Made by a program: the position numbers and the translations under genes
Shown: one piece after another, positions 8,011 through 58,962 of the stretch
Position numbering within the stretch: position 1 is the first letter of the stretch
How the letters are laid out: each line of letters starts with the position of its first letter
Notes under the pieces: generated by a model
Told to the model about the DNA's origin: nothing
The model's database searches: none
Seen by the model: only the letters and a program-made list of their open reading frames with translations
Assembly (NCBI GenBank): GCA_001786835.1
Contig: MFTO01000013.1
Span: 1,002-65,001 of the forward strand
Length of the DNA stretch: 64,000 nt
From: Candidatus Nomurabacteria bacterium RIFCSPHIGHO2_01_FULL_40_20
GTDB taxonomy: Bacteria > Patescibacteriota > Minisyncoccia > Phycocordibacterales > UBA9973
Direction of reading: 5' to 3'

Positions 8011-8301
8011 ATGCTTGCGTACGTTTTAGAATTTTACCGTGAAATACGAGGCTATACCCGTTTTGAGCTGGAAGGGCTTACGGGAATTCCGGCCCACGTA
8101 ATTTCTGAATTTGAAAGTGGCAAGATATTGCCAGATACTGCTCAACTAGAAGCACTCGGTAAAGTGTTTCGAGTGCCCAGCGACTTGCTACTTCGCATGG
8201 CTAAGAACGAAGAAATAGAGGGAGAGATCTTAGAGGGTGATTCTATTCTTATTGAACATGTCTTTAGATCGTATATGAAAATGAAGATAAAAGGAGAGTA
8301 A
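8011..8301 (+). CDS. XRE-family helix-turn-helix DNA-binding protein
   Basis: The segment IRGYTRFELEGLTGIPAHVISEFESGKILPDTAQLEALGKVFRVPSDLL is an HTH_XRE pattern. A rho-independent terminator (AAGCCG...CGGCTT followed by T7) lies at about 8361-8395. Confidence 0.6.
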   Translation: MLAYVLEFYREIRGYTRFELEGLTGIPAHVISEFESGKILPDTAQLEALGKVFRVPSDLLLRMAKNEEIEGEILEGDSILIEHVFRSYMKMKIKGE

Positions 8302-8487
8302 ATGCGAGGAGATGCTTCAGGGAGAGGATTCTCATCGTTTAAGAATTAAGTAACTGCGGGTTTTTGCTAAGCCGTCCAACTGGTCGGCTTTTTTTATATC
8401 TAAAACTTACTTTGAAAATAAAAACCCCTCCGAACCATTGCTGGCCGAAGGGATCTCGCTGTGCTTGGCAGGCGCTAGAAAGTGGAT

Positions 8488-8622
8488 TACATCTTCTTTG
8501 TGTTTTTGTGTTCTGGCCCTTTATGAAAGAGCAAAATCGCTGAACAGACAGCGCTCAAAAACATGCAGAAAAAAGCGCCATACATTCCCCAGCTAAAATA
8601 GCTCTCAATGATAAATTGAATC
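8488..8622 (-). CDS. Possible 44-aa hydrophobic peptide; below the ORF-track threshold, found by hand
   Basis: It translates to MIQFIIESYFSWGMYGAFFCMFLSAVCSAILLFHKGPEHKNTKKM*. It is followed by copy 1 of the repeated 3' element. Confidence 0.2.
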
Positions 8623-8834
8623 ATACAATTATGTATTTAGAGTCAATGAAACAAATAGTATCTCTATTAAAATATTAGTCCTATTTAAAGGTTTTGTCAA
8701 AGACATCTAGACTTTTTGAGGTTTTCATGCTATAAATCTTAACAAGAACTTGACTCTTTGAAATTGGTTTTATTGGGTGAGCAGAGAAGACTTTTAGAAG
8801 CCTTTTGCGCTCACCTTTTTAATAAAACTTTAAT

Positions 8835-12694: not shown

Positions 12695-12712
12695 GATTTT
12701 AGTATAGCAAAA

Positions 12713-35417: not shown

Positions 35418-36002
35418 TTAGAGTGGTTTAAAAAGTTTTTCTAATTCTTTTCTCTTACTTGGGTCGAGCTTAGCTTCATAAAGATTTTTTACAATCTCAA
35501 CTTCGGCAAAATTCTTTTCCATTCCTATCTCGAGGAATTCATCGAAGGTAACCGGAAACAATTCTATCTTCTCTCCTGCATCGAGACTCAGCTCGGCCAC
35601 TTTTTTCAAACCTTTGGCGATAAAAGTGTAGATGACCCAATCAATTTTACTAGTGACGTGTTGCGCATCCCACAGGATAAATTCCTCGGCTTCATACCCA
35701 CTCTCTTCTAAAAGTTCACGCCGGGCCGCAGAGAGTATATCTTCACCTTTGTCCACCTGCCCCCCGGTAGCGCCGATGAAAGGCTCTTTACTGGGTTGCT
35801 CTTGCTTGGTCAAAATTATTTTTCCATCGGCAAGTACTGGAAAAACCACTACCGTATCCGGCCTTTTTAATTTTTCAAAAATAGCCATAGAGCCGTCAAA
35901 CATCTTCTGCTCCCATTGATATACATCAAATAAAATACCTTGAAAGACGCGCTTGGCATGCTCTGGAATTGGTTGTTTAGACTCCGGTCTTTTGATTTCC
36001 AT
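35418..36002 (-). CDS. NUDIX hydrolase (ADP-ribose pyrophosphatase-like)
   Basis: The Nudix box GGQVDKGEDILSAARRELLEESGY. Confidence 0.8.
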   Translation of the reverse strand: MEIKRPESKQPIPEHAKRVFQGILFDVYQWEQKMFDGSMAIFEKLKRPDTVVVFPVLADGKIILTKQEQPSKEPFIGATGGQVDKGEDILSAARRELLEESGYEAEEFILWDAQHVTSKIDWVIYTFIAKGLKKVAELSLDAGEKIELFPVTFDEFLEIGMEKNFAEVEIVKNLYEAKLDPSKRKELEKLFKPL

Positions 36003-36029
36003 CCCCTTTAGTATAGCAAAAATCGTAAG

Positions 36030-36093
36030 TTAAAATCTATTCTCTTATTCGCACGAATTAGAGAAGGTGGTCAGCTCTAGAGTTAGCTCTAGA
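36030..36093. repeat. Dispersed intergenic repeat, copy 1. It contains a 12-2-12 palindrome TTCTCTTATTCG-CA-CGAATTAGAGAA and a tandem AGCTCTAGAGTT hairpin, located upstream (on the minus strand) of the Nudix gene's -10.
   Basis: Read directly. Related copies are at 36646-36672, 36974-37030 and 39707-39740, and the AGCTCTAGAG unit alone at 58927-58952. Confidence 0.8.
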
Positions 36094-36094
36094 G

Positions 36095-36619
36095 TTATAA
36101 TTTCTCTTTTTTCATATCCACTTGCCAAATACCCATGAGAATTGAACTCATGACAAAAACCTCAGTAACTATGCCGGGATATGAAACCATAACAATACTG
36201 TATACAAACCACAAACCGGAGCCAACAAGCGAGAAAATTCTAATCAAAAAAGGATTGTCTCTCCATCTAGCGTAAGTACCCACAACAATCCCAAAAAATG
36301 GAAGAAGGCTAATCAACCCCTGCCAGGACAAAGAGAGAAGAACTCCTGCAAAAAGTATAAAAACAACAACCCACCACGGCGAGGATGCCCAACGTTTCTT
36401 ATCTTTCTTTTCAAATACAAAATTGCGCACTCCAGCAACAATGTTCATGGTAGCTCCAGTAAAAGCACCGAGCATTGCAAAGTGCACGGTAAAGAAAATT
36501 GTCGAGAACATCTGCTTTTTGAGTATTTGCGTTCTCGTTTTCCCTTGAAAGGAGAGAATAATGAAAACAAGGCCGATAAATCCTAAGCCTTGAGTAATCC
36601 AAAATGTCATGTCCCCCAT
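36095..36619 (-). CDS. Hypothetical 5-6 TM membrane protein (YgjV/PnuC-like topology; the family call is weak)
   Basis: Hydrophobic helices throughout. It sits in a cluster of nucleotide-pyrophosphatase genes. Confidence 0.4.
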   Translation of the reverse strand: MGDMTFWITQGLGFIGLVFIILSFQGKTRTQILKKQMFSTIFFTVHFAMLGAFTGATMNIVAGVRNFVFEKKDKKRWASSPWWVVVFILFAGVLLSLSWQGLISLLPFFGIVVGTYARWRDNPFLIRIFSLVGSGLWFVYSIVMVSYPGIVTEVFVMSSILMGIWQVDMKKEKL

Positions 36620-36690
36620 CGTTTTAGTATAGCAAAATACTTAAGATTAAAAACCATTCTCTTATTCGTGCGAATTAGAGAAGGTTAGGG

Positions 36691-36957
36691 TCAAAGAGAG
36701 TCAATGATCTCTTTGACGAGCGAATTGGGTTTAGAAAATAAACTATAAAATTTTACCAAGCTTACTTGGTCCGCTTCTATAATCTCCGCATTAGATAAAA
36801 TCAAGAGGTGTTTTGAGGTGGATTTAAAAGAAAGCTTTATGGCATCCGCAACCTCTCCCACTGACTGCTCTTTGTTTTTCTTCAAAAATTTTAAAATAGC
36901 TAGCCGGCGTCGATTGGCAAACGCTTTGAATATTTTTTCTAAATCTTTTTCTTGCAT
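36691..36957 (-). CDS. ArsR/SmtB-family winged-helix transcriptional regulator
   Basis: FKAFANRRRLAILKFLKK..EQSVGEVADAIKLSFKSTSKHLLILSNAEII is the ArsR HTH signature. A 12-2-12 palindrome lies upstream. Confidence 0.7.
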   Translation of the reverse strand: MQEKDLEKIFKAFANRRRLAILKFLKKNKEQSVGEVADAIKLSFKSTSKHLLILSNAEIIEADQVSLVKFYSLFSKPNSLVKEIIDSL

Positions 36958-36973
36958 AAATCTTATTTTACCA

Positions 36974-37030
36974 CCATTCTCTTATTCGTGCGAATTAGAG
37001 AAGGTGGTCAGCTCTAGAGTTAGCTCTAGA
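36974..37030. repeat. Dispersed intergenic repeat, copy 3, upstream of the ArsR-family gene: TTCTCTTATTCG-TG-CGAATTAGAGAA plus AGCTCTAGAGTTAGCTCTAGAGCT
   Basis: Read directly. Confidence 0.8.
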
Positions 37031-37568
37031 GCTGGTACTCCCAGCCGGGTTGCCAGGATTTGGTTTTGCGCCAGTCTTCGGCTAGGGCTTGTTCCCAAGT
37101 TTTACCTTTAAGTAGCACGTCTAGGGATAATTGCGGAGCTTTGTGAGCAACTATAGCCACATGTTTGCCGTCATAATTTTCTTTTAGAAATTTCAAAAAG
37201 TCTGCCATTCTTGCCTTCACATCTTCATAACTTTCCCCGCCCGGAAATTTATTGTAAATACATTCCTCTTCTTGCATCGGCTCCACCACCAAAGACGACG
37301 CGCCATTTAATTTTCCATAGTCGCATTCACGCAGTCTCTTGTCAGAGATAATTTCATATTTGTCTCCAAACGCAAGATGCGCCGAATCCACCGCCCGTTT
37401 CAAATCCGAGCAAAAAACCACATCAAAATTTTTATCAGCTACAAGATCGCCGAGTTCTTTTGATTGTTTTATTCCTAACTCCGACAACTCCCCCGGCAAT
37501 CCGCCAGTAGAAATATGCTCTTCATTGTCCGTCGTCGTCCCGTGTACAAAATATGTGATTTGAATCAT
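37026..37568 (-). CDS. Histidine-phosphatase superfamily protein (phosphoglycerate-mutase-like) with VHG replacing the canonical RHG
   Basis: IQITYFVHGTTTDN, ...FCSDLKRAVDSA... and ...IVAHKAPQ. Confidence 0.65.
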   Translation of the reverse strand: MIQITYFVHGTTTDNEEHISTGGLPGELSELGIKQSKELGDLVADKNFDVVFCSDLKRAVDSAHLAFGDKYEIISDKRLRECDYGKLNGASSLVVEPMQEEECIYNKFPGGESYEDVKARMADFLKFLKENYDGKHVAIVAHKAPQLSLDVLLKGKTWEQALAEDWRKTKSWQPGWEYQL

Positions 37569-37587
37569 GGGTTTAGTATAGCAAAAG

Positions 37588-37983
37588 TTATTTCTGATAA
37601 TTAAATTTTCCCGTTAATAATTTATAAACAAAAACGACACCAACGATGGTTATGATTACTCCTGTTATCAAACCTGGGTAATATGATTGAGTTTTTAGGG
37701 CTTCGTATACATGGGAAAATTCATAAAGAGATATAATCGAAAAAATCAATGATAAAATAAAGGGTATTCTTTTTTTAGATAAAACAAGAACCAACAAAAC
37801 CGCCAAAAATAAAAACAACGCTATCTGTATGAGTGAAAAAGTAATTTGTTGGTCTAGATTAAAATATTTACTCAAATGCAAAACGGATAAATCTATACTT
37901 GCAAAATCGGTAAATATTTCTTCTAAAAAATGAACTACAAAAAGTGGAACTAGCACGTGAACAAAACTCTCAACTCTTTTCAT
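37588..37983 (-). CDS. Hypothetical 4-TM membrane protein
   Basis: Hydrophobic throughout. A leaderless-type promoter (TTTTGCTATACTAAAG) lies upstream. Confidence 0.4.
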   Translation of the reverse strand: MKRVESFVHVLVPLFVVHFLEEIFTDFASIDLSVLHLSKYFNLDQQITFSLIQIALFLFLAVLLVLVLSKKRIPFILSLIFSIISLYEFSHVYEALKTQSYYPGLITGVIITIVGVVFVYKLLTGKFNYQK

Positions 37984-38080
37984 ACCTTTAGTATAGCAAA
38001 ATATAAGATAGAAAAAGCAAAACCATGCTAGCTTGATTTGTTCGTGCCTTAATGTTAGTTTAAAGAAAAATCATGTACTT

Positions 38081-38566
38081 ATGAAAACGATAAACATAAC
38101 ATCAGGGTCAAAAGACCCTATCGCCTATATCTTAAGTAACTTAGCCCATACACCCTTCTCCTACGGCGGATACACTTTCAAATGCGTTGAAGCTCCGCTT
38201 CAAGGTATAAAAATTGAAAACAAGGTAGAGAGGGAAAGAGTATTTGCTATGGACGGACTAAGCGCGCTTAAAATCGGCAGAAAGATTACGCGGGCAGTAA
38301 AGGACGGTGAAGAAAGATTTGTATATTGGGAGGGAAAGAAAATTCCATATAACTCTCAAGACCACAGATTGCTCATTGTATCTTTTATCGGAGAAAAAGT
38401 TCGACAAAATCCTGAAGTTCAAAAAGCGTTGATAGAAACAAAAGATAAATTCATCTACCACGATGTTGGACCTGAGCATCCAAAAACTTCTTTGCCGGAA
38501 AAACTCTTTATAGAAATTCTGCTTGCAAAAAGAAAAATTCTTTTAAAATTGAAAAATCTAAAATGA
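38081..38566 (+). CDS. NADAR (DUF1768, YbiA-like) domain protein. The track start is 38033, but the likely start is MKTINITSG at 38081.
   Basis: INITSGSKDPIAYILSNLAHTPFSYGGYTFKCVEAPLQGIK follows the NADAR N-terminal pattern (..F....d....LSNF...PF...G..F.svEhyfQa.K). Confidence 0.55.
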   Translation: MKTINITSGSKDPIAYILSNLAHTPFSYGGYTFKCVEAPLQGIKIENKVERERVFAMDGLSALKIGRKITRAVKDGEERFVYWEGKKIPYNSQDHRLLIVSFIGEKVRQNPEVQKALIETKDKFIYHDVGPEHPKTSLPEKLFIEILLAKRKILLKLKNLK

Positions 38567-38572
38567 AGCGCT

Positions 38573-38863
38573 ATGGAAAAATCATTTTTTGAATACTATT
38601 GCAATGTCACAGAAAACATAGTTTTTGCCCAACTTGATGCAGAAATAAAAGAACAAAAAGTCATCACATTAAAAGAATGTGCAAAAACTCTACGACAGCA
38701 AATGCTTCTTCTTAGAAAAGAATTAAAAAACGAGGAGGAAAAAAATGTACTAGTTAAAAATCAAGCAGTAATCTTTAAAAGATATAAAGAGCACTTGATA
38801 AAAAAAATAATCCGCAACTCAATACAAAAAGAATTGAAGAACAGGGGGAAGTTAAAAAAATAA
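38573..38863 (+). CDS. Hypothetical basic coiled-coil protein
   Basis: A 96-aa K/E-rich ORF, 7 nt after the NADAR gene. Confidence 0.35.
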   Translation: MEKSFFEYYCNVTENIVFAQLDAEIKEQKVITLKECAKTLRQQMLLLRKELKNEEEKNVLVKNQAVIFKRYKEHLIKKIIRNSIQKELKNRGKLKK

Positions 38864-38926
38864 CTTCCTTTTTTTATTTCTTCCAATCCGCAACCACCAG
38901 CTTTTTGCCGGAGGAGTTTGCATGAG

Positions 38927-39265
38927 TTACTTTTTAGCAAATCTGTCTTTATCTCGACTCTTGGACTTAGCGATTACTTTCTCTATTTCAATATCCAGGT
39001 CTATGCCATGGCTATTAGCCATACAGATTAGAGTAAACATTACATCCGCAATTTCTTCGCCGAGCTCTTGCTTCTCTTCGTTTGATTTCTTTGGCTTAGA
39101 ACCATACATATGGTTTAAAATTCTTCCCACTTCCCCCACCTCTTCAGCTAAATGGGCAAACTGCGAAAGCGCCGGCCAGTATGGTTCTTCAAAACCTTTC
39201 ACCCACTCATCTATTTCTTTTTGATACTTTTTCATATTTCTAGTATACCAAAATTTACATATCAC
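38927..39265 (-). CDS. MazG-like nucleotide pyrophosphohydrolase
   Basis: LAEEVGEVGRILNH...ELGEEIADVMFTLICMANSHGIDL is the EExxE...EExxD MazG motif pair. Confidence 0.7.
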   Translation of the reverse strand: MICKFWYTRNMKKYQKEIDEWVKGFEEPYWPALSQFAHLAEEVGEVGRILNHMYGSKPKKSNEEKQELGEEIADVMFTLICMANSHGIDLDIEIEKVIAKSKSRDKDRFAKK

Positions 39266-39680
39266 TTCCCCACCAAGTTTTTCGTTCGCCTTTCGCCCAA
39301 GATTTTAATAGTTCTCGTAGGGGTATCGGCAAAAGATTTTTACTTTCAAATTCGGCAGGTGTAATCCAAGTGAAAATCAAATCTTCTTCCATTGGTTTTA
39401 TGTTTTCCGGTTTAAGAACCGAAATATCAAAATAATGCGTAATCTCCCAATGTTTCTCGCCATTTCTCTCCCATGCCTGCTCTATCGCACCCAAATACTC
39501 TTTTACCTCGCAACGAACTCCTGCTTCTTCTAGAATTTCCCGCTTTAGTGCTTCTGGGACACTCTCGCCTTCTTCTACATGCCCACCCAAAAGCGCACAG
39601 TGCCCATCATTTTCAAAAACTAAAAATTTCCCTTCATTCTTTATAATTCCCCGCACCCGCAAGTGCCATTTTGTTTCCAT
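39255..39680 (-). CDS. NUDIX hydrolase
   Basis: The Nudix box GGHVEEGESVPEALKREILEEAGV. Confidence 0.8.
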   Translation of the reverse strand: METKWHLRVRGIIKNEGKFLVFENDGHCALLGGHVEEGESVPEALKREILEEAGVRCEVKEYLGAIEQAWERNGEKHWEITHYFDISVLKPENIKPMEEDLIFTWITPAEFESKNLLPIPLRELLKSWAKGERKTWWGSDM

Positions 39681-39706
39681 GTCCTAAGTATAGCAAAAAC
39701 CCTAAG

Positions 39707-39740
39707 ACAAAATCTATTCTCCTATTCGTACGAATTAGAG
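39707..39740. repeat. Dispersed intergenic repeat, copy 4, upstream of the second Nudix gene: TTCTCCTATTCG-TA-CGAATTAGAGAA
   Basis: Read directly. Confidence 0.75.
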
Positions 39741-39837
39741 AAGATATTCGAGTTCTATAATTAGCTTTAGAGCTAATTCTATATAAAAAAAGAGATCGCT
39801 CGGTTATTCAACCTACTAGATCTCTGTTGTACAGAAA

Positions 39838-40182
39838 TTATTCTTGAACAAAAAAAACTGAAAAATCAACATGTGGCACTTCTACTCCTGAAGGTTTACA
39901 AGTGTCAATATAGTTATTGACGATCATTGCATTCATCCGGATAGTCGAATTAGTCATAGACACAGAAATCCTGCGCTGACTTTTCTTGATGAATCCCACT
40001 TGATTTTCTGTGTCCCGTAATACTTTTTGGTGTATTTCGAGCGCTGTACCAATCTCTTCTTGTGCATTCTTAACCAGTCCTTCTAAAGAAGAAAAAAATA
40101 ATGAAGAAAACTGGATCGCATAATGCTTACGAATGTCCACTAGCTGTTGACTTAAATAAGCTTGAAGTTTTTGAATATCCAT
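39838..40182 (-). CDS. Hypothetical protein (the track start is 40224, but an internal Met is likely)
   Basis: An ORF followed by a hairpin and T7 terminator at about 39790-39837. Confidence 0.3.
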   Translation of the reverse strand: MDIQKLQAYLSQQLVDIRKHYAIQFSSLFFSSLEGLVKNAQEEIGTALEIHQKVLRDTENQVGFIKKSQRRISVSMTNSTIRMNAMIVNNYIDTCKPSGVEVPHVDFSVFFVQE

Positions 40183-40267
40183 ATTAGTGTTTTTAAATGA
40201 ACAAATGAATTTGCATTCTAGCACATAAATACCCTATATGTCAAGGGTAAGATATCGCATTTAACCC

Positions 40268-42529
40268 CTATTTTGCAATACTCACCGCTTCGTCGAAGCG
40301 GACGGAGAGGAGCTTGGAGGCGCCATCGGCGCCGATGGTGACACCGTAAAGAACTCCAGCGCGAGACATAGTCTCGCGGTTGTGGGTGACAACGATGAGC
40401 TGGGATTCGGAAGAAAGTTTCTCTAGCATATCTCCGTATTTGCGCGAGTTCGCTTCATCAAGCGCAGCATCGGTTTCGTCTAATACCAAAAACGGCGGAG
40501 GGTTCACTTGGGTCATTGCAAAGAGTAGCGCGATAGAAGTGAGCGAACGTTCGCCTCCGGAGAGAGATTGAAGCTCTTTGACTTTTTTGTGCGGAAGCGA
40601 GACATTTATCTCTATGCCTTGCTCGGGTTTGGTTTCTTCGTCTTCTAGCGCAATTTCTTCACCCTCTTCATCGGTAATCACTTGCTTGCGTTTTACTTCT
40701 TCTATCACTTTGATATTTCCCGTGCCCCCGCCAAACATGAGCGCAAAAAATTCTTGGAATTCTTTATTTATTTTTTTAACGCCCTCTTGAAATTTTACAT
40801 TTATCTTTTCTTTGAGCTCTGCCATCAAAGTTTCTAAGCCCTCAATACTTTGTTTCAAGTCTTCCAATTCTTTTACTAAAAATTCGTCACGCGCGTTGAC
40901 TTCTTCGTATTCGGCCGTAATGTCATGCTCGCTCCCGAGACCTGAATCCTCAAGCCTGATTTTGAGTTTCTCAATTGCCTTTTTCATTTCTTTTCGATCT
41001 TCCTGCTCAACCCCGGAGGCGTCGCCTCCGGGGTTGCTATAGTCGTTTATTTCTTCTCCCACGAGAACAGTTCCTTCTCGAATTTCGTTTTTAAAAGTTT
41101 CAACGCCAGCCCGCAAGTTTTCCTCGCGCACTTTGTGTAATTCCAAAGCGGAAACTAGTTCCTGATGGCGGACTTTGAGCTCAAATTTCTCGCGCTCCTC
41201 CGCTCTGCTTCGCTCCACGAGCCCACTAATTTCTTTTTTCAAATTCTCGGCAGACTTTGCAAACTCTTCTTCTTTTTTACTAAGCTTTTCTATTTCTCCG
41301 GAAACTTCGTCTTTGGTTTTTTTAAGCTCACGAATCGCGTTCTCGCCTTCTTCGCCTTTGGCGCTTTTTTTCTCGAGAGTTGCGAGCGCCATCCTTATCT
41401 TCTCCAATATTGCGCGCACTTCCGGAATACTCTCGTTCTCTAAGGCCTCTTTAATGTATTCACTTGTCTCGCGCAAAACTTGCCCCACTTCTTCACCCGA
41501 GAATACCACTTCACCTCCGCGGGATTCTTTCCTAGTTTCTTCCGCTTCGAGCATGCCTTCTATTCGCCCGAGCTTGCGCACCAATTCATTCTTTAGTCTC
41601 TCCATATTTGAAACTTCTTGCTCTAAATTTTGAAGTTCTTTTAGTTTGGCGTCTTCCTTTGCCTCGTTCCCCGCGCTTTTACCCGAAATTTCTTTTTCTA
41701 TTTTTGCAATTTCGCTTTTTATTTTTCCGCCCTCGCCTGCAAGCATCTTCCTTTCTTTTTCTAAATACGCATTTTCGGCAAAAAGATATTTTTTATACAA
41801 ATCTAAAAGCTCCACCCGCATATCTTTTACCTTTTGAAATTTCTCCACTTGCTTGCGTAAAAACGCCAAGTGCGGAGCGTTCTCCCGACGTTGGAGCCCC
41901 ACTTCTTTCATATTTTCTTCCGCCCGCTCGAGCTTTCTCTCCGTCTCGCGGATTTTGTATTGATAAATTTTAAGTCCAAGCGCGTCTTCAATCATTTCTT
42001 TGCGCTCTTTGGGATTTGCGTTTAAAATTCTGTCCGCCTCGCCTTGGGAAATGATGTGGTGTCCCGAAGAGCCGATGTGAAGCGAGGCGAGTAATGATTG
42101 GACATCTTTCAAACGCACTTCCTCGCCATTTAGAAGATATTTGTTCACGCCATCCGGATAAACTTCTCGTCCGATAGAAATGGTGTCAAAGTTAACATTC
42201 AAATCCGTGCCATCGTCATTCCACAGTTTAAAAACTCGATCGGAATTGTCGAAATATACAGCGACCGACGCGCGCGAGCCCTTGGGCAATGTCTTGGAGC
42301 CTTTAAATATCAAGTCCGCGCCAAGTTTTCCACGCATGCTCTTCATGGATTGCTCGCCGAGCACAAAGCGAAAGGCTTCTACCACATTTGATTTCCCCGA
42401 GCCGTTGGGACCCACGATGCAGACTATTTTGTTTCCGAATTCTAGCGGAGTTTTCTTGGAAAAAGATTTAAAGCCGTTTAGTTCTATGTGCTTGAGTCTC
42501 ATAAAAGAAAGAAGAGTTAGTCCAGCCAA
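40268..42529 (-). CDS. smc: SMC-family chromosome segregation ATPase (a short 753-aa form)
   Basis: An N-terminal Walker A (CIVGPNGSGKSN), a long coiled coil, and a C-terminal signature plus Walker B (LSGGERSLTSIALLFAM...LVLDETDAALD). Confidence 0.85.
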   Translation of the reverse strand: MAGLTLLSFMRLKHIELNGFKSFSKKTPLEFGNKIVCIVGPNGSGKSNVVEAFRFVLGEQSMKSMRGKLGADLIFKGSKTLPKGSRASVAVYFDNSDRVFKLWNDDGTDLNVNFDTISIGREVYPDGVNKYLLNGEEVRLKDVQSLLASLHIGSSGHHIISQGEADRILNANPKERKEMIEDALGLKIYQYKIRETERKLERAEENMKEVGLQRRENAPHLAFLRKQVEKFQKVKDMRVELLDLYKKYLFAENAYLEKERKMLAGEGGKIKSEIAKIEKEISGKSAGNEAKEDAKLKELQNLEQEVSNMERLKNELVRKLGRIEGMLEAEETRKESRGGEVVFSGEEVGQVLRETSEYIKEALENESIPEVRAILEKIRMALATLEKKSAKGEEGENAIRELKKTKDEVSGEIEKLSKKEEEFAKSAENLKKEISGLVERSRAEEREKFELKVRHQELVSALELHKVREENLRAGVETFKNEIREGTVLVGEEINDYSNPGGDASGVEQEDRKEMKKAIEKLKIRLEDSGLGSEHDITAEYEEVNARDEFLVKELEDLKQSIEGLETLMAELKEKINVKFQEGVKKINKEFQEFFALMFGGGTGNIKVIEEVKRKQVITDEEGEEIALEDEETKPEQGIEINVSLPHKKVKELQSLSGGERSLTSIALLFAMTQVNPPPFLVLDETDAALDEANSRKYGDMLEKLSSESQLIVVTHNRETMSRAGVLYGVTIGADGASKLLSVRFDEAVSIAK

Positions 42530-43284
42530 TTTTTTATTTTTAATGCGTTTTGGGCGGCACTCTGTTCGGCCTCTTGCTTACTCTTGCCCTTGCCTTCGGC
42601 GACAAGTTCGCTTTCAAATAGGATACCCACGGTAAAATGTTTGTCATGGTCAGGACCTACTTCGTGAAGCACTTTGTAGGAAGGGGTGACCCCCACGAAC
42701 TCCTGCGCTTTCTCCTGCACCAAGCTCTTGGCATCGCGCCAGAGCTTTTTGGAAACAATTTCTTCGGTCTTGGTGAGGAGAGTTCCAGAGACAAATTCAT
42801 CTGCCTCGTCATATCCTTGGTCTAGAAAAAGCGCTCCGACATATGCTTCGTAAGTATTCGCCAGGATATACTGCCTGGCTTTACCTGTATCTTTAGCTTC
42901 GCCTTTGGAGAGCAAAAGAAATTCATTCATACCGATTTTGTCCGCCACTTCTGCAATGATGACTGCATTTACCAGCGCCGAACGGAGAGCTGTCAATTCC
43001 CCTTCATTGTGGGTGGGATACTTTTTATATAAAAAGTCGGTGACAATAAGCTCGAGCACTGCGTCGCCTAGAAACTCCAAGCGTTCGTTGTGAGAAAGCC
43101 CGGTATTACCGTTCTCATTGATAAAAGAGCGGTGAATAAAAGCTTGCTTGAGCAGATTTTTATCCTTAAAAGTTATTTTTGTTTTTTTCTCAAAACCTGA
43201 AAAATCTATTGTCTTGTTCATGGCGGTGTTATTTTTGTTTAGAAATAATTTCGACTGCTTTCCCAATAAGCGGAATAATGTCAT
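42517..43284 (-). CDS. rnc: Ribonuclease III
   Basis: HRSFINE...NERLEFLGDAVLELIVTDFLY is the RNase III signature, with a C-terminal dsRBD. Confidence 0.9.
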   Translation of the reverse strand: MTLFRLLGKQSKLFLNKNNTAMNKTIDFSGFEKKTKITFKDKNLLKQAFIHRSFINENGNTGLSHNERLEFLGDAVLELIVTDFLYKKYPTHNEGELTALRSALVNAVIIAEVADKIGMNEFLLLSKGEAKDTGKARQYILANTYEAYVGALFLDQGYDEADEFVSGTLLTKTEEIVSKKLWRDAKSLVQEKAQEFVGVTPSYKVLHEVGPDHDKHFTVGILFESELVAEGKGKSKQEAEQSAAQNALKIKNWLD

Positions 43285-44152
43285 TATAAATGCGAAGTTC
43301 CGGAATCTCCGATAATTGGAACCATTTGGCGCCGTCGAGCCCCCCCGAAGACTCTAAAGTAAGTTCGCGATATTCACTCTCGGCCAGAAAGTAAGAAACT
43401 TGTTTTAGGGTTTTGCCACGCTCGGGGTGCGTTGCCACATACTCATTCTCGCCCAATTTTTTAATAATTGTTATATCAAGGCCGATCTCTTCTTTGATTT
43501 CTCCTATAGTCCCAGTCTCCACATCTTCACCCTCTTCAATATGCCCCTTGGAAAGTGTCCAGTAACCAAAAACATCATGCACTAGGGCAAAATAAGTGAT
43601 GCCATCCTTTTTCGCATAAACCAAAGCTCCCCCCAATTTTTCTTTCGGCAGTTTGGTAATGTCTACCGGTTCTTCTGTCTTTTTCTTTTTGCTGGTTTCT
43701 TCTTTGCCGGGCTCGCCTATTTCTTTATATACCGCCCCCAAAACTCCGTTTACAAATTTGCTGGAATTTTCTCCGCCAAAAGTCTTGGCGAGTTCTATGG
43801 CTTCATTAATCGCCACCTTCGGAGGCACTTGAGTGCGATCGCCGAAAAGGAGCTCGGTCAATCCTATTCGCAAAATATTTCTGTCCACTGCTGAGATTTT
43901 GTCTAGTGGCCAGTCCGGCGCCGCTTTTTCTATAATCTCGTCCACTACTTTTTGCTTTTTCAAAACTTGCTCAGTCAAAGCAAGTACAAAAACATCATCT
44001 TCAAGTCCGGGAGCGAATTCTTTTAAATTTCTATCTAAAACTTTTTTTATTTCTTGGTCATCCCAAGGAGCGCCACTGCGTCCAGCGGGAAAGAAATCCC
44101 ACTCAAAGAGAGTCTGCAGAACTATTGATCTTGAAAGGTGCCTGTTTGCCAT
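43229..44152 (-). CDS. nusB: NusB antitermination factor fused to a C-terminal NUDIX hydrolase domain
   Basis: The N-terminal about 150 aa are NusB-like (RSIVLQTLFEWDF...ILRIGLTELLF...NEAIELAKTFGGENSSKFVNGVLGAV). The C-terminus carries the Nudix box SKGHIEEGEDVETGTIGEIKEEIGL. Confidence 0.8.
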   Translation of the reverse strand: MANRHLSRSIVLQTLFEWDFFPAGRSGAPWDDQEIKKVLDRNLKEFAPGLEDDVFVLALTEQVLKKQKVVDEIIEKAAPDWPLDKISAVDRNILRIGLTELLFGDRTQVPPKVAINEAIELAKTFGGENSSKFVNGVLGAVYKEIGEPGKEETSKKKKTEEPVDITKLPKEKLGGALVYAKKDGITYFALVHDVFGYWTLSKGHIEEGEDVETGTIGEIKEEIGLDITIIKKLGENEYVATHPERGKTLKQVSYFLAESEYRELTLESSGGLDGAKWFQLSEIPELRIYNDIIPLIGKAVEIISKQK

Positions 44153-58926: not shown

Positions 58927-58962
58927 CGAGCTCTAGAGTTAGCTCTAGAGCTAAATACGTAA

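Follow-up and report, generated by a model that had tools for sequence, protein, structure and literature searches.

The dispersed 26-bp palindrome of this 64,000-nucleotide stretch (hereafter the window), which extends to 32 bp with its flanks, would be the cognate site of an 88-amino-acid ArsR/SmtB-fold protein that represses its own gene, the two forming a Patescibacteria-wide module with dispersed boxes. We assign this reading, which is built on sequence comparisons, a probability of about 70%. Very probably, the ArsR-family protein of the cluster has the palindrome as its operator and its gene is autoregulated; the box-gene-box arrangement, the overlap of box and promoter, the co-variation observed in paralogues and the 12-2-12 geometry of the repeat all point to this pairing. 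To our knowledge, the Candidate Phyla Radiation (CPR) has so far no characterised pair of transcription factor and operator, and no published description of this protein/palindrome pair was found in the literature on CPR regulons, ArsR proteins, motifs or peptides. The 88-amino-acid protein and its 26-bp site offer a concrete and testable pair, conserved in hundreds of uncultured lineages.

Within the window, the palindrome occurs four times as TTCTCTAATTCG-NN-CGAATA(A/G)GAGAA, with 0-1 mismatch on the minus strand, at 36040..36065 (copy 1), 36657..36682 (copy 2, 8 nt past the stop codon of the arsR-like gene), 36977..37002 (copy 3) and 39717..39742 (copy 4), all given without strand. This is exactly the number of dispersed palindromes reported in the first-pass annotation, which had described copy 2, in front of the YgjV membrane gene, as partial; we found it complete. 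Chance and low complexity were rejected as the source of the palindrome, since 100 shuffles of the window produced no match, and a scan relaxed to a minimum of 17 matching positions out of 24 detected no degenerate further copy in the 64 kb. Across stretches the consensus is a perfect palindrome, which with its flanks reads CTA-TTCTCTAATTCG-CG-CGAATTAGAGAA-TAG (32 bp). The exact pattern was present in at least 120 stretches of GTDB genomes, nearly all of them from Patescibacteria and from many classes. This taxon restriction, the many independent studies involved and the continuity of protein homology through intragenic copies led us to reject an assembly or adapter artefact, and a phage origin was rejected because IMG/VR viral contigs contained no exact match.

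The gene lying between copies 2 and 3 (A2914_01015; 36691..36957, minus strand) encodes a minimal winged-helix protein of 88 amino acids that matches Pfam HTH_5 (PF01022; E = 1.6e-7; 31.5 bits, cut-off 22). Its AF2 model (pLDDT 95.3) comprises helices 3-13, 16-28, 33-40 and 44-56, strands 60-65 and 68-73, and helix 79-87, corresponding to the family fold alpha1-alpha2-alpha3-alphaR-beta1-beta2-alpha5; this fold accounts for all 88 residues, and the Pfam matches are HTH_5 and related winged-helix models only. Foldseek aligned the model to CadC, YgaV, HlyU, CzrA, PagR and NolR with TM-scores of 0.80-0.85, and sequence matches in the PDB include Lmo1102, HlyU, CzrA, NolR, PagR and SmtB. A metal- or redox-sensing repressor had been proposed initially, a proposal that the protein itself does not support: it is devoid of Cys, its one His belongs to the recognition helix (LSFKSTSKHL), 24 of 27 aligned homologues are Cys-free, and the sole conserved His is the one in this helix. 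None of the known metal-binding residues was found, neither Cys in alpha3/alpha3N nor a His/Asp/Glu cluster in alpha5 (SLVKEIIDSL). On these residues the protein falls outside the metal- and thiol-sensing subgroups (alpha3, alpha3N, alpha5, alpha5c, BigR/SqrR type), a redox-active Cys pair being absent as well. Given the lack of Cys and of the metal-binding residues of the family, metal or thiol sensing is unsupported and the protein is, as judged from its residues, a sensor-less member of the ArsR/SmtB family without evident effector.

SmtB, CzrA, CadC and AzuR share with our protein the HTH_5 domain, the fold and a 12-2-12 repeat at their own and neighbouring promoters, but the family described here, of only 85-90 amino acids, lacks the alpha3/alpha3N Cys and the alpha5 His/Asp/Glu site, its gene lies between two polar boxes, its box is perfect, 26-32 bp long and found superphylum-wide, and the adjacent genes are other than metal-resistance genes. 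HlyU, PagR, NolR and YgaV, which gave the best matches in both sequence and structure (HlyU at 30-34% identity), are likewise small winged-helix dimers that lack the classical metal sites; however, HlyU and the YgaV/BigR type sense redox state or sulfide through Cys, of which this family has none, and operators of the HlyU/YgaV type are neither conserved past genera nor dispersed in genes, whereas the boxes here are both.

Three of the four copies share one promoter layout, with the box at about -38..-63 from the ATG and a TATACT hexamer 24-25 nt downstream of it. Copy 1 occupies -38..-63 from the ATG of Nudix hydrolase 1 (35418..36002, minus; extended -10 at 36007..36021, minus), copy 2 the same interval from that of a YgjV-family inner-membrane protein (PF10688; 36095..36619, minus; extended -10 TTTTGCTATACTAAA at 36623..36637, minus, where TATACT is followed by 6 nt and the ATG), and copy 4 the interval -37..-62 from that of Nudix hydrolase 2 (39255..39680, minus; extended -10 TTTTGCTATACTTAG at 39684..39698, minus). 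These three Pfam-assigned genes are the candidate targets, and a MazG gene (38927-39235; Pfam) with its own -10 at 39239-39253 lies downstream of Nudix-2. The extended -10 TTTTGCTATACTAAA is found 6 times in the region, and also at 12698 and 52188, against an expectation of 0.42. Copy 3, the putative operator of the arsR-like gene (-20..-45 from its ATG), departs from the layout that had been described for all copies, as it belongs to a different promoter (36965..36994, minus) in which the -35 TTCGCA is the centre of the box and is followed by an 18-nt spacer and the extended -10 TGGTAAAAT, with the ATG (36957) 7 nt beyond in a leaderless geometry. According to the mechanism that we propose, the protein would most likely bind the box as a single dimer or as two paired dimers; the leaderless promoter of the arsR-like gene, with its -35 inside the box, would be repressed by its own product, and the leaderless promoters of Nudix-1, YgjV and Nudix-2 (with MazG downstream) would be modulated, probably repressed, through the boxes at about -38..-63. 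These latter boxes miss the extended -10 promoters; repression is assumed there, and activation or no effect is possible.

Other elements of the initial gene inventory were borne out in part. Pfam recovered the two Nudix hydrolases, MazG, the ArsR-family regulator and the histidine phosphatase (His_Phos_1; 37026-37568, stop codon 37026-37028), and the NusB-Nudix fusion is also present in the window, while of three proposed membrane proteins two were verified, YgjV and an HXXEE protein (37588-37983; Pfam). The supposed NADAR (YbiA-like) gene matches Pfam Phage_30_3 (T4 gp30.3), with no NADAR/YbiA match in Pfam (E <= 0.01) or in the PDB sequence search, and a second HisE/MazG-like gene was not found in the window ORFs scanned.

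The window also contains a genome-specific, terminator-like hairpin which is not the ArsR box, with copies at 36072..36097 (CAGCTCTAGAGTTAGCTCTAGAG, at the 3' end of the YgjV gene) and 37009..37034 (CTCTAGAG, overlapping the last codons and stop codon of His_Phos_1), both given without strand, and a third at 58928-58953, after a tRNA. This separate hairpin already precedes two of the boxes, which makes the box dispensable for termination. It counts against a post-transcriptional role of the palindrome (terminator, 3' hairpin that stabilises the mRNA, or processing site, by analogy with the REP/BIME elements of enterobacteria), which we consider improbable. Such a role would fit the 11-18-bp stem that the palindrome could form as RNA, the folding of the 3' regions of His_Phos_1 (-39.4 kcal/mol, z = -8.3) and arsR (z = -3.95), the many palindromes that adjoin stop codons or sit between convergent genes, and the double changes that preserve symmetry (CA/TG, CG/CG, AC/GT, TC/GA). 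Yet a terminator scan calls none of the 4 copies, whose A+T-rich stems lack a U tract and have the nearest T run 4 nt off; the mismatch seen in the window reads A.A on the sense strand and T.T on its complement rather than G.U; and at least 20 positions are identical across phyla, which is not expected of a structure-only element. Moreover, the copy upstream of arsR lies before the inferred transcription start and would thus be absent from the arsR transcript. Rfam identified two tRNAs only in the window, and no known RNA family at the palindromes.

The association of protein and palindrome was analysed in 80 metagenome loci, which were picked via the protein alone and then checked for the box, with genes called by ORF heuristics. 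The box was located upstream of the gene in 69 of 75 loci, at its 3' end in 68 of 77 and at both in 61 of 72, and box density within 2 kb of the gene was about 10 times that at 2-10 kb. The recognition helix LSFK[AS]TS[KR]HL is almost invariant, alongside an invariant box core CTAATTCG..CGAAT, and HTH_5 paralogues carrying other helices (ISEKSMSKHL; VNFKT[IG]S[AE]H) are flanked by other perfect palindromes. Boxes within one locus resemble each other more than boxes of different loci (27.8/32 versus 23.8/32; permutation p < 0.0002), and rare bases at half-site position 7 occur in both arms together. The orientation of the box relative to the gene is polar and boxes double as -10 elements, with three arrangements among homologues: TGGTAGAAT within the proximal arm and the ATG 6-7 nt on, the -10 immediately past the box, or the box at -36..-61. 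At the gene's own promoter the box overlaps the -35 or the -10. The proposal that an ArsR-family protein reads the palindrome is thus upheld by flanking boxes in ~85-92% of the 80 loci, by promoter overlap and by paralogue co-variation, and the proposed operator geometry agrees with the 12-2-12 inverted repeats reported near or over SmtB/ArsR promoters and sometimes within genes too (PMC8790569). DNA binding, like the regulatory direction of the sites at -38..-63 and a role for the intragenic copies, is something that we infer, and from the conserved adjacency and the helix/operator co-variation such binding would be sequence-specific and by a homodimer. The module would consist of the gene between two polar boxes, with more boxes nearby and across the genome.

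The genes accompanying the boxes do not support the regulon for ADP-ribose/NAD-derived nucleotides suggested by the first-pass annotation. Box neighbours elsewhere are unrelated (e.g. ArgRS, RRF, PurL, TsaE); among 61 genes directly downstream of boxes there were two Nudix matches, both of them the window's own, and the remaining box-downstream genes span 79 unrelated Pfam families. The Nudix/MazG "house-cleaning" link is, on these neighbourhoods, local to this genome, which corrects the functional story to that of a regulator without metal or thiol sensor. Clustering of 107 box-downstream genes gave 83 clusters, the recurrent ones being the arsR-like gene itself and one 4-member family of roughly 430-600 amino acids that is Cys-rich at its N-terminus and matches nothing in Pfam (the copy of locus L012 is cut at the locus end), and with almost no recurrence a conserved partner or target gene was rejected. 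Of the intergenic boxes, 30 of 113 lie between convergent genes and many adjoin stop codons, and ~15% of copies are coding; this distribution goes part of the way towards the mostly coding or promoter-distant placement that the first-pass annotation had named as speaking against its regulon.

Those ~15% of exact-pattern copies lie in frame within conserved genes (Dus, MnmA, TatD, Mpg, DinB, UvrC, AlaRS), and ~19 boxes are in frame within conserved domains, in two reading frames, where they are read as FSNSRELEN or SLIRANRR. In-frame boxes within conserved domains are not predicted by a simple operator model. They decay in related lineages: among 120 close homologues, ~5 retain the Dus copy intact and ~40 have it in decayed form. 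In Dus, MurD-like and UvrC proteins the palindrome takes the place of a loop with length unchanged, and in TatD and MnmA 9 and about 5 amino acids, respectively, are added at the palindrome. A hidden winged-helix gene between two variant palindromes was sought in the FemAB-like gene of loci L141 and L160, and none was found.

By analogy with mobile elements, the palindrome, the winged-helix gene and the second palindrome could constitute a selfish, self-propagating cassette, comparable to a RAYT gene between its REP sequences or an IS between its inverted repeats, whose solo palindromes are non-autonomous copies or excision scars, tolerated where harmless, in-frame protein loops included. We regard this origin, which is compatible with binding of the protein to the palindrome, as unlikely. 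Consistent with it, both gene flanks carry the box in ~85% of loci, often with the stop codon within the downstream palindrome; the gene with its two boxes sits between housekeeping genes that are unrelated from one genome to another; a distinct palindrome goes with each paralogue family, with solo copies of the second family dispersed and often 40-90 nt from type-1 copies; and intergenic modules are duplicated inside the window with 89-96% identity. The in-frame copies in two reading frames and the decay of the Dus copy would also fit, as would the T-A...T-A flanks, which agree with TA duplication; these flanks are themselves palindromic, so a target-site duplication is indistinguishable. A precedent exists in the Rickettsia palindromic elements (RPE), palindromic DNA which, in frame in unrelated housekeeping genes of a reduced genome, adds a short hydrophilic peptide (PMC10969869). 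Nevertheless, RPE span about 100-150 bp, are restricted to one genus and are evident insertions, whereas the box measures 26-32 bp, often replaces a loop and has a dedicated putative binding-protein gene. REP/RAYT systems share with the boxes the cognate palindromes flanking the gene, a palindrome class per subfamily and dispersed solo palindromes, but RAYT is an HUH-Y1 (IS200/IS605-like) transposase and the protein here is a DNA-binding domain only, HTH_5, in which Pfam and structure searches found no nuclease, transposase or recombinase motif. REPs, in addition, number hundreds and are extragenic, while boxes are few (roughly 1-5 exact copies seen per genome; ~0.015 per kb away from the gene), partly intragenic and cross-phylum, with a consensus nearly identical over the superphylum, whereas REP and MITE families are species-specific. 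Loop replacement without length change in Dus, MurD-like and UvrC argues against simple insertion, as do the polarity of the copies and their use as -10 elements against a selfish cassette, and no exact match turned up in the IMG/VR viral contigs.

A less likely possibility is that Patescibacteria contain families of self-contained palindrome-wHTH-palindrome cassettes, whose cognate perfect palindromes of 26-32 bp would disperse over the genome and be written in frame, with length unchanged, into loops of essential enzymes (Dus, MnmA, MurD, UvrC, AlaRS). If true, this would be either a REP/RAYT-like selfish system with a non-catalytic DNA-binding protein or a genome-wide site-specific system under which sites are selected even within genes, and we know of no earlier description of such a selfish or such a genome-wide site-selecting system. 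The in-frame copies would represent either regulatory DNA selected inside coding loops of very compact genomes or a new kind of palindromic selfish element.

ParB/parS-type systems combine a small dimeric protein with a conserved palindrome, whose 5-50 sites on the chromosome include intragenic ones, and with autoregulation through a site adjoining their own gene. By analogy, protein and boxes could mark nucleoid, segregation or replication sites, as in ParB/parS, Noc/NBS, MatP/matS or RTP/Ter, a role that would suit a long palindrome extremely conserved over the superphylum, with few copies per genome, beside genes without common function, and kept identical at synonymous positions in intragenic copies whose flanks have diverged, for example the Dus copy of four genomes. 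We deem it very improbable, since the boxes concentrate within 2 kb of the gene and not over a chromosomal domain, the majority are intergenic and promoter-linked, the Dus copy has decayed in most lineages, and several paralogues coexist, each with its own site. As for the genes near the boxes, Mpg, DinB, UvrC, AlkD-like, TatD, Dus, MnmA, TsaD/E and TGT are suggestive of a DNA-repair or tRNA-modification theme.

All four copies of the 26-bp palindrome reported by the first-pass annotation are present in the window, at 36040-36065, 36657-36682, 36977-37002 and 39717-39742, and each matches the pattern TTCTCTAATTCG-NN-CGAATAAGAGAA, read on the minus strand, with 0-1 mismatch (box core, CTAATTCG). 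The copy upstream of the YgjV gene, which had been called partial, is complete. The pattern found no match in 100 shuffles of the sequence, and when as few as 17 of the 24 positions had to match, the 64 kb yielded no further copy. The genes concerned all lie on the minus strand. The boxes of Nudix-1 and YgjV are placed at -38 to -63 from the ATG and that of Nudix-2 at -37 to -62, in the three cases 24-25 nt upstream of a TATACT hexamer. The box of the arsR-like gene (36691-36957) lies at -20 to -45 from its ATG, and the promoter of this gene runs from a -35 TTCGCA, at the palindrome centre, through 18 nt, TGGTAAAAT and 7 nt to the ATG. The element TTTTGCTATACTAAA was found six times in the region, with the TATACT hexamer always 6-7 nt before an ATG, a spacing that would be compatible with leaderless transcripts. 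Near-identical copies of this 15-nt extended -10 precede the ATGs of unrelated genes (12698-12712, 36007-36021, 36623-36637, 37572-37586, 37987-38001, 39239-39253 and 39684-39698), indicating that promoter modules were duplicated together with their spacers; the duplicated intergenic modules comprise a 57-nt family with 89% identity and a 56-nt family with 96%.

A separate hairpin, CAGCTCTAGAGTTAGCTCTAGAG, precedes two of the boxes. With its extension, CAGCTCTAGAGTTAGCTCTAGAG(CTG), it occurs at the 3' end of the YgjV gene (36072-36097), at the 3' end of the His_Phos_1 gene (37009-37034) and after a tRNA (58928-58953); it occurs in none of the other loci examined and looks like a terminator-like element of this genome's own. 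The layout is thus gene, terminator-like hairpin, box, promoter, gene, and the box would be dispensable for termination in the window. The proposal that the box itself acts as an RNA hairpin or terminator is weak: it has no U tract, a terminator scan called none of the four copies, the mismatch in the window is A.A/T.T and not G.U, and the sequence does not vary as that of an element defined by structure only would.

The 88-aa product of the arsR-like gene, 100% identical to A2914_01015, has a canonical ArsR/SmtB fold, and its AlphaFold model (pLDDT 95) gave TM-scores of 0.80-0.85 against CadC, YgaV, HlyU, CzrA, PagR and NolR. It contains no cysteine, a residue also absent from 24 of 27 aligned homologues, and its sole histidine is inside the recognition helix (LSFKSTSKHL); alpha5 reads SLVKEIIDSL. 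No metal, metalloid or thiol sensory site known from the ArsR family was seen in the sequence, which leaves the metal- or redox-sensing repressor initially proposed without support. In sequence, fold and operator the system resembles the SmtB/ArsR autorepressors, which have 12-2-12 operators (PMC8790569), but its regulator falls outside the metal- or thiol-sensing ArsR/SmtB subgroups.

When each GTDB species, represented by a single genome, was scanned for exact matches to the four 5-bp blocks of the box (TTCTC-NN-ATTCG-NN-CGAAT-NN-GAGAA), at least 120 stretches matched, and nearly all of those listed belong to Patescibacteria of many classes, including Paceibacterota and Kaiser-, Sung-, Uhr-, Vogel-, Taylor-, Wolfe- and Doudnabacteria. 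Most often the box takes the form of a perfect palindrome, TTCTCTAATTCGCGCGAATTAGAGAA, with three extra conserved bases on each side (CTA...TAG). Two or three matches from outside Patescibacteria hit a protein motif by chance, such as SecD/F ILIFERIREE in a Zixibacteria genome. A homologue of the regulator with 42-62% identity and an adjoining box was present in 26 among the 120 pattern-selected loci listed. A cleaner test is provided by 80 metagenome loci picked by protein and not by palindrome (source: at least 548 confirmed stretches among 598 candidates). Here a box lies upstream, at most 176 nt away, in 69 of 75 loci, at the 3' end of the gene in 68 of 77 and on both sides in 61 of 72, and a TAA within the downstream box serves as the stop codon in 25 loci. 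Overlap with the promoter takes three forms: the proximal arm constitutes the extended -10 (CGAA-TGG-TAGAAT), followed by the ATG after 6-7 nt; the -10 directly follows the upstream box, as in the window; or the box sits at -36 to -61, upstream of a TGnTATAAT leaderless promoter, which is the geometry of the three candidate target promoters in the window. The boxes are also polarized relative to the gene, with the distal arm nearer the consensus in 39 vs 14 upstream copies and 32 vs 6 downstream copies. The two copies of a locus resemble each other more than copies taken from separate loci do (27.8 vs 23.8 out of 32 positions; permutation test, p<0.0002), and where half-site position 7 has a rare base, both arms share it. 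The density of additional boxes within 2 kb of the gene is about 10 times that at 2-10 kb, in line with their clustering in the window.

The strongest indication is given by other small HTH_5 genes in these loci. They have a different recognition helix, and each is preceded and followed by a perfect 28-32-bp palindrome of its own: the helix ISEKSMSKHL pairs with ACTATCTCATTTTCGCGCGAAAATGAGATAGT and VNFKT[IG]S[AE]H with TTATTCTAATGTTCTTAAGAACATTAGAATAA. These paralogous genes of 91-98 aa are bracketed by one or the other palindrome at L172 8313-8703 (also in L175), L061 5214-5599 and L090 937-1260; in these genomes the arrangement is typical of the family rather than a one-off. Such co-variation of helix and site is what would be expected of a cognate protein-operator pair. 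We consider it probable (roughly 70%) that the box and the ArsR-like protein form such a pair, and an autorepressed ArsR-type regulator with dispersed boxes would best explain the observations.

The same architecture could also reflect a selfish cassette, REP/RAYT-like or RPE-like, a reading compatible with the protein binding the box. The gene is flanked by palindromes, each family has its own, and solo copies, variable neighbourhoods and in-frame copies fit this possibility, the last with a precedent in RPE elements (PMC10969869); however, the ArsR-like protein has no catalytic domain, copy number is low, the identity of the box extends across phyla and the polarity of its copies is linked to promoters. 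The operator model leaves some copies unexplained. Among 113 intergenic boxes that have heuristic gene calls to either side, co-directional genes flank 66, convergent genes 30 and divergent genes 17, and many of the boxes touch or include a stop codon. Another 21 are inside long ORFs, about 19 of them in Patescibacteria genes with continuous homology on either side and with the site spanned by single Pfam domains. The carriers are Dus (four genomes, same site), MnmA (three), TatD, Mpg, DinB and a glycosyltransferase (two each), as well as MurD-like, UvrC, AlaRS, DegT and FAD oxidase genes. The box is translated as FSNSRELEN in one frame and as SLIRANRR or SLIRTNKR in the other; this second frame is open only where the AATAGG/AATAAG variant eliminates the TAG, and the two copies in Mpg differ in frame. 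In Dus the box is identical between genomes while the flanking codons differ at synonymous sites, but among 120 close homologues only about 5 sites are intact, about 40 are decayed (FSNSYELRN, FSHSQEYEN and others) and the rest are unrelated loops of the same length. Dus, MurD-like and UvrC proteins with the box are unchanged in length relative to orthologues, and TatD and MnmA have gained 5-9 residues. Unchanged length in some genes together with the decay in Dus suggests that intragenic copies are neither simple insertions nor under stable conservation. Very compact genomes could have forced regulatory sites into their coding loops and then turned them over, or the copies could be relics of a selfish process. 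A parS-, NBS- or Ter-like architectural site would account for intragenic conservation, but this option is disfavoured by the clustering of boxes around the regulator gene and by the decay of the Dus copy. We found no published description of a sensor-less minimal ArsR form kept throughout Patescibacteria, of a nearly invariant 26-32-bp perfect box, of a box-gene-box architecture common to several paralogous families or of in-frame box copies within conserved enzymes.

As to gene content, Pfam bears out two Nudix genes, MazG, His_Phos_1 and HTH_5 in the cluster, and the NusB-Nudix fusion is confirmed. Only two of the three membrane proteins were verified (YgjV and HXXEE, both by Pfam); the supposed NADAR gene matches Phage_30_3, with no detectable NADAR link, and a second MazG/HisE-like gene was not found among the ORFs scanned in the window. 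The 107 genes starting just downstream of boxes in other genomes fall into 83 clusters, the sole large one being the regulator itself; 61 of these genes span 79 different Pfam families, and the only Nudix matches are the window's own. The gene after the regulator varies by genome (ArgRS, ABC-F ATPase, RRF, PurL, DHOD-B subunit, SDR, PEBP or an unknown protein). The Nudix/MazG association thus belongs to this genome and not to the system, and of the first-pass annotation the protein-operator pairing is supported while the nucleotide house-cleaning regulon, like the sensing function, is not.

Adjoining the cluster are genes for a 307-aa NusB-Nudix fusion (43229-44152) and for a short, roughly 750-aa SMC_N protein (40268-42529), with RNase III between them. 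Besides the regulator, the only recurrent candidate target is a family of proteins of about 430-600 aa that match no Pfam model and have a Cys-rich N-terminus resembling a zinc ribbon; in four genomes their genes begin 10-126 nt downstream of a box (L012 1-1335, cut at the locus end; L028 2991-4781; L031 2819-4555; L035 1049-2776). About 10 boxes occupy 4 kb around the regulator gene of L132, where three in tandem, 71-80 nt apart, are followed by a SAM riboswitch (RF00162, 48.4 bits, 8466-8587) and by a fourth box, with arm TGGTAGAAT, directly before a 140-aa gene (8240-8700 overall). Some type-1 boxes share their intergenic region with a solo second-family palindrome (TTCTAATGTTCT-NN-AGAACATTAGAA) at a distance of 40-90 nt (L004 7362, 7446; L041 3488, 3540; L104 108, 150; L141 1846, 1934; L160 11266, 11354), and these pairs resemble mosaic repeat clusters or promoters with two inputs. 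In L141 (1464, 1846) and L160 (10861, 11266), no small gene was found between two copies of a variant palindrome, TTCTCATATTCTGCAGAATATGAGAA, that lie 382-405 bp apart in a FemAB-like gene, once in frame (FSYSAEYEN) and again just past the stop codon; both copies are identical in these two related genomes.
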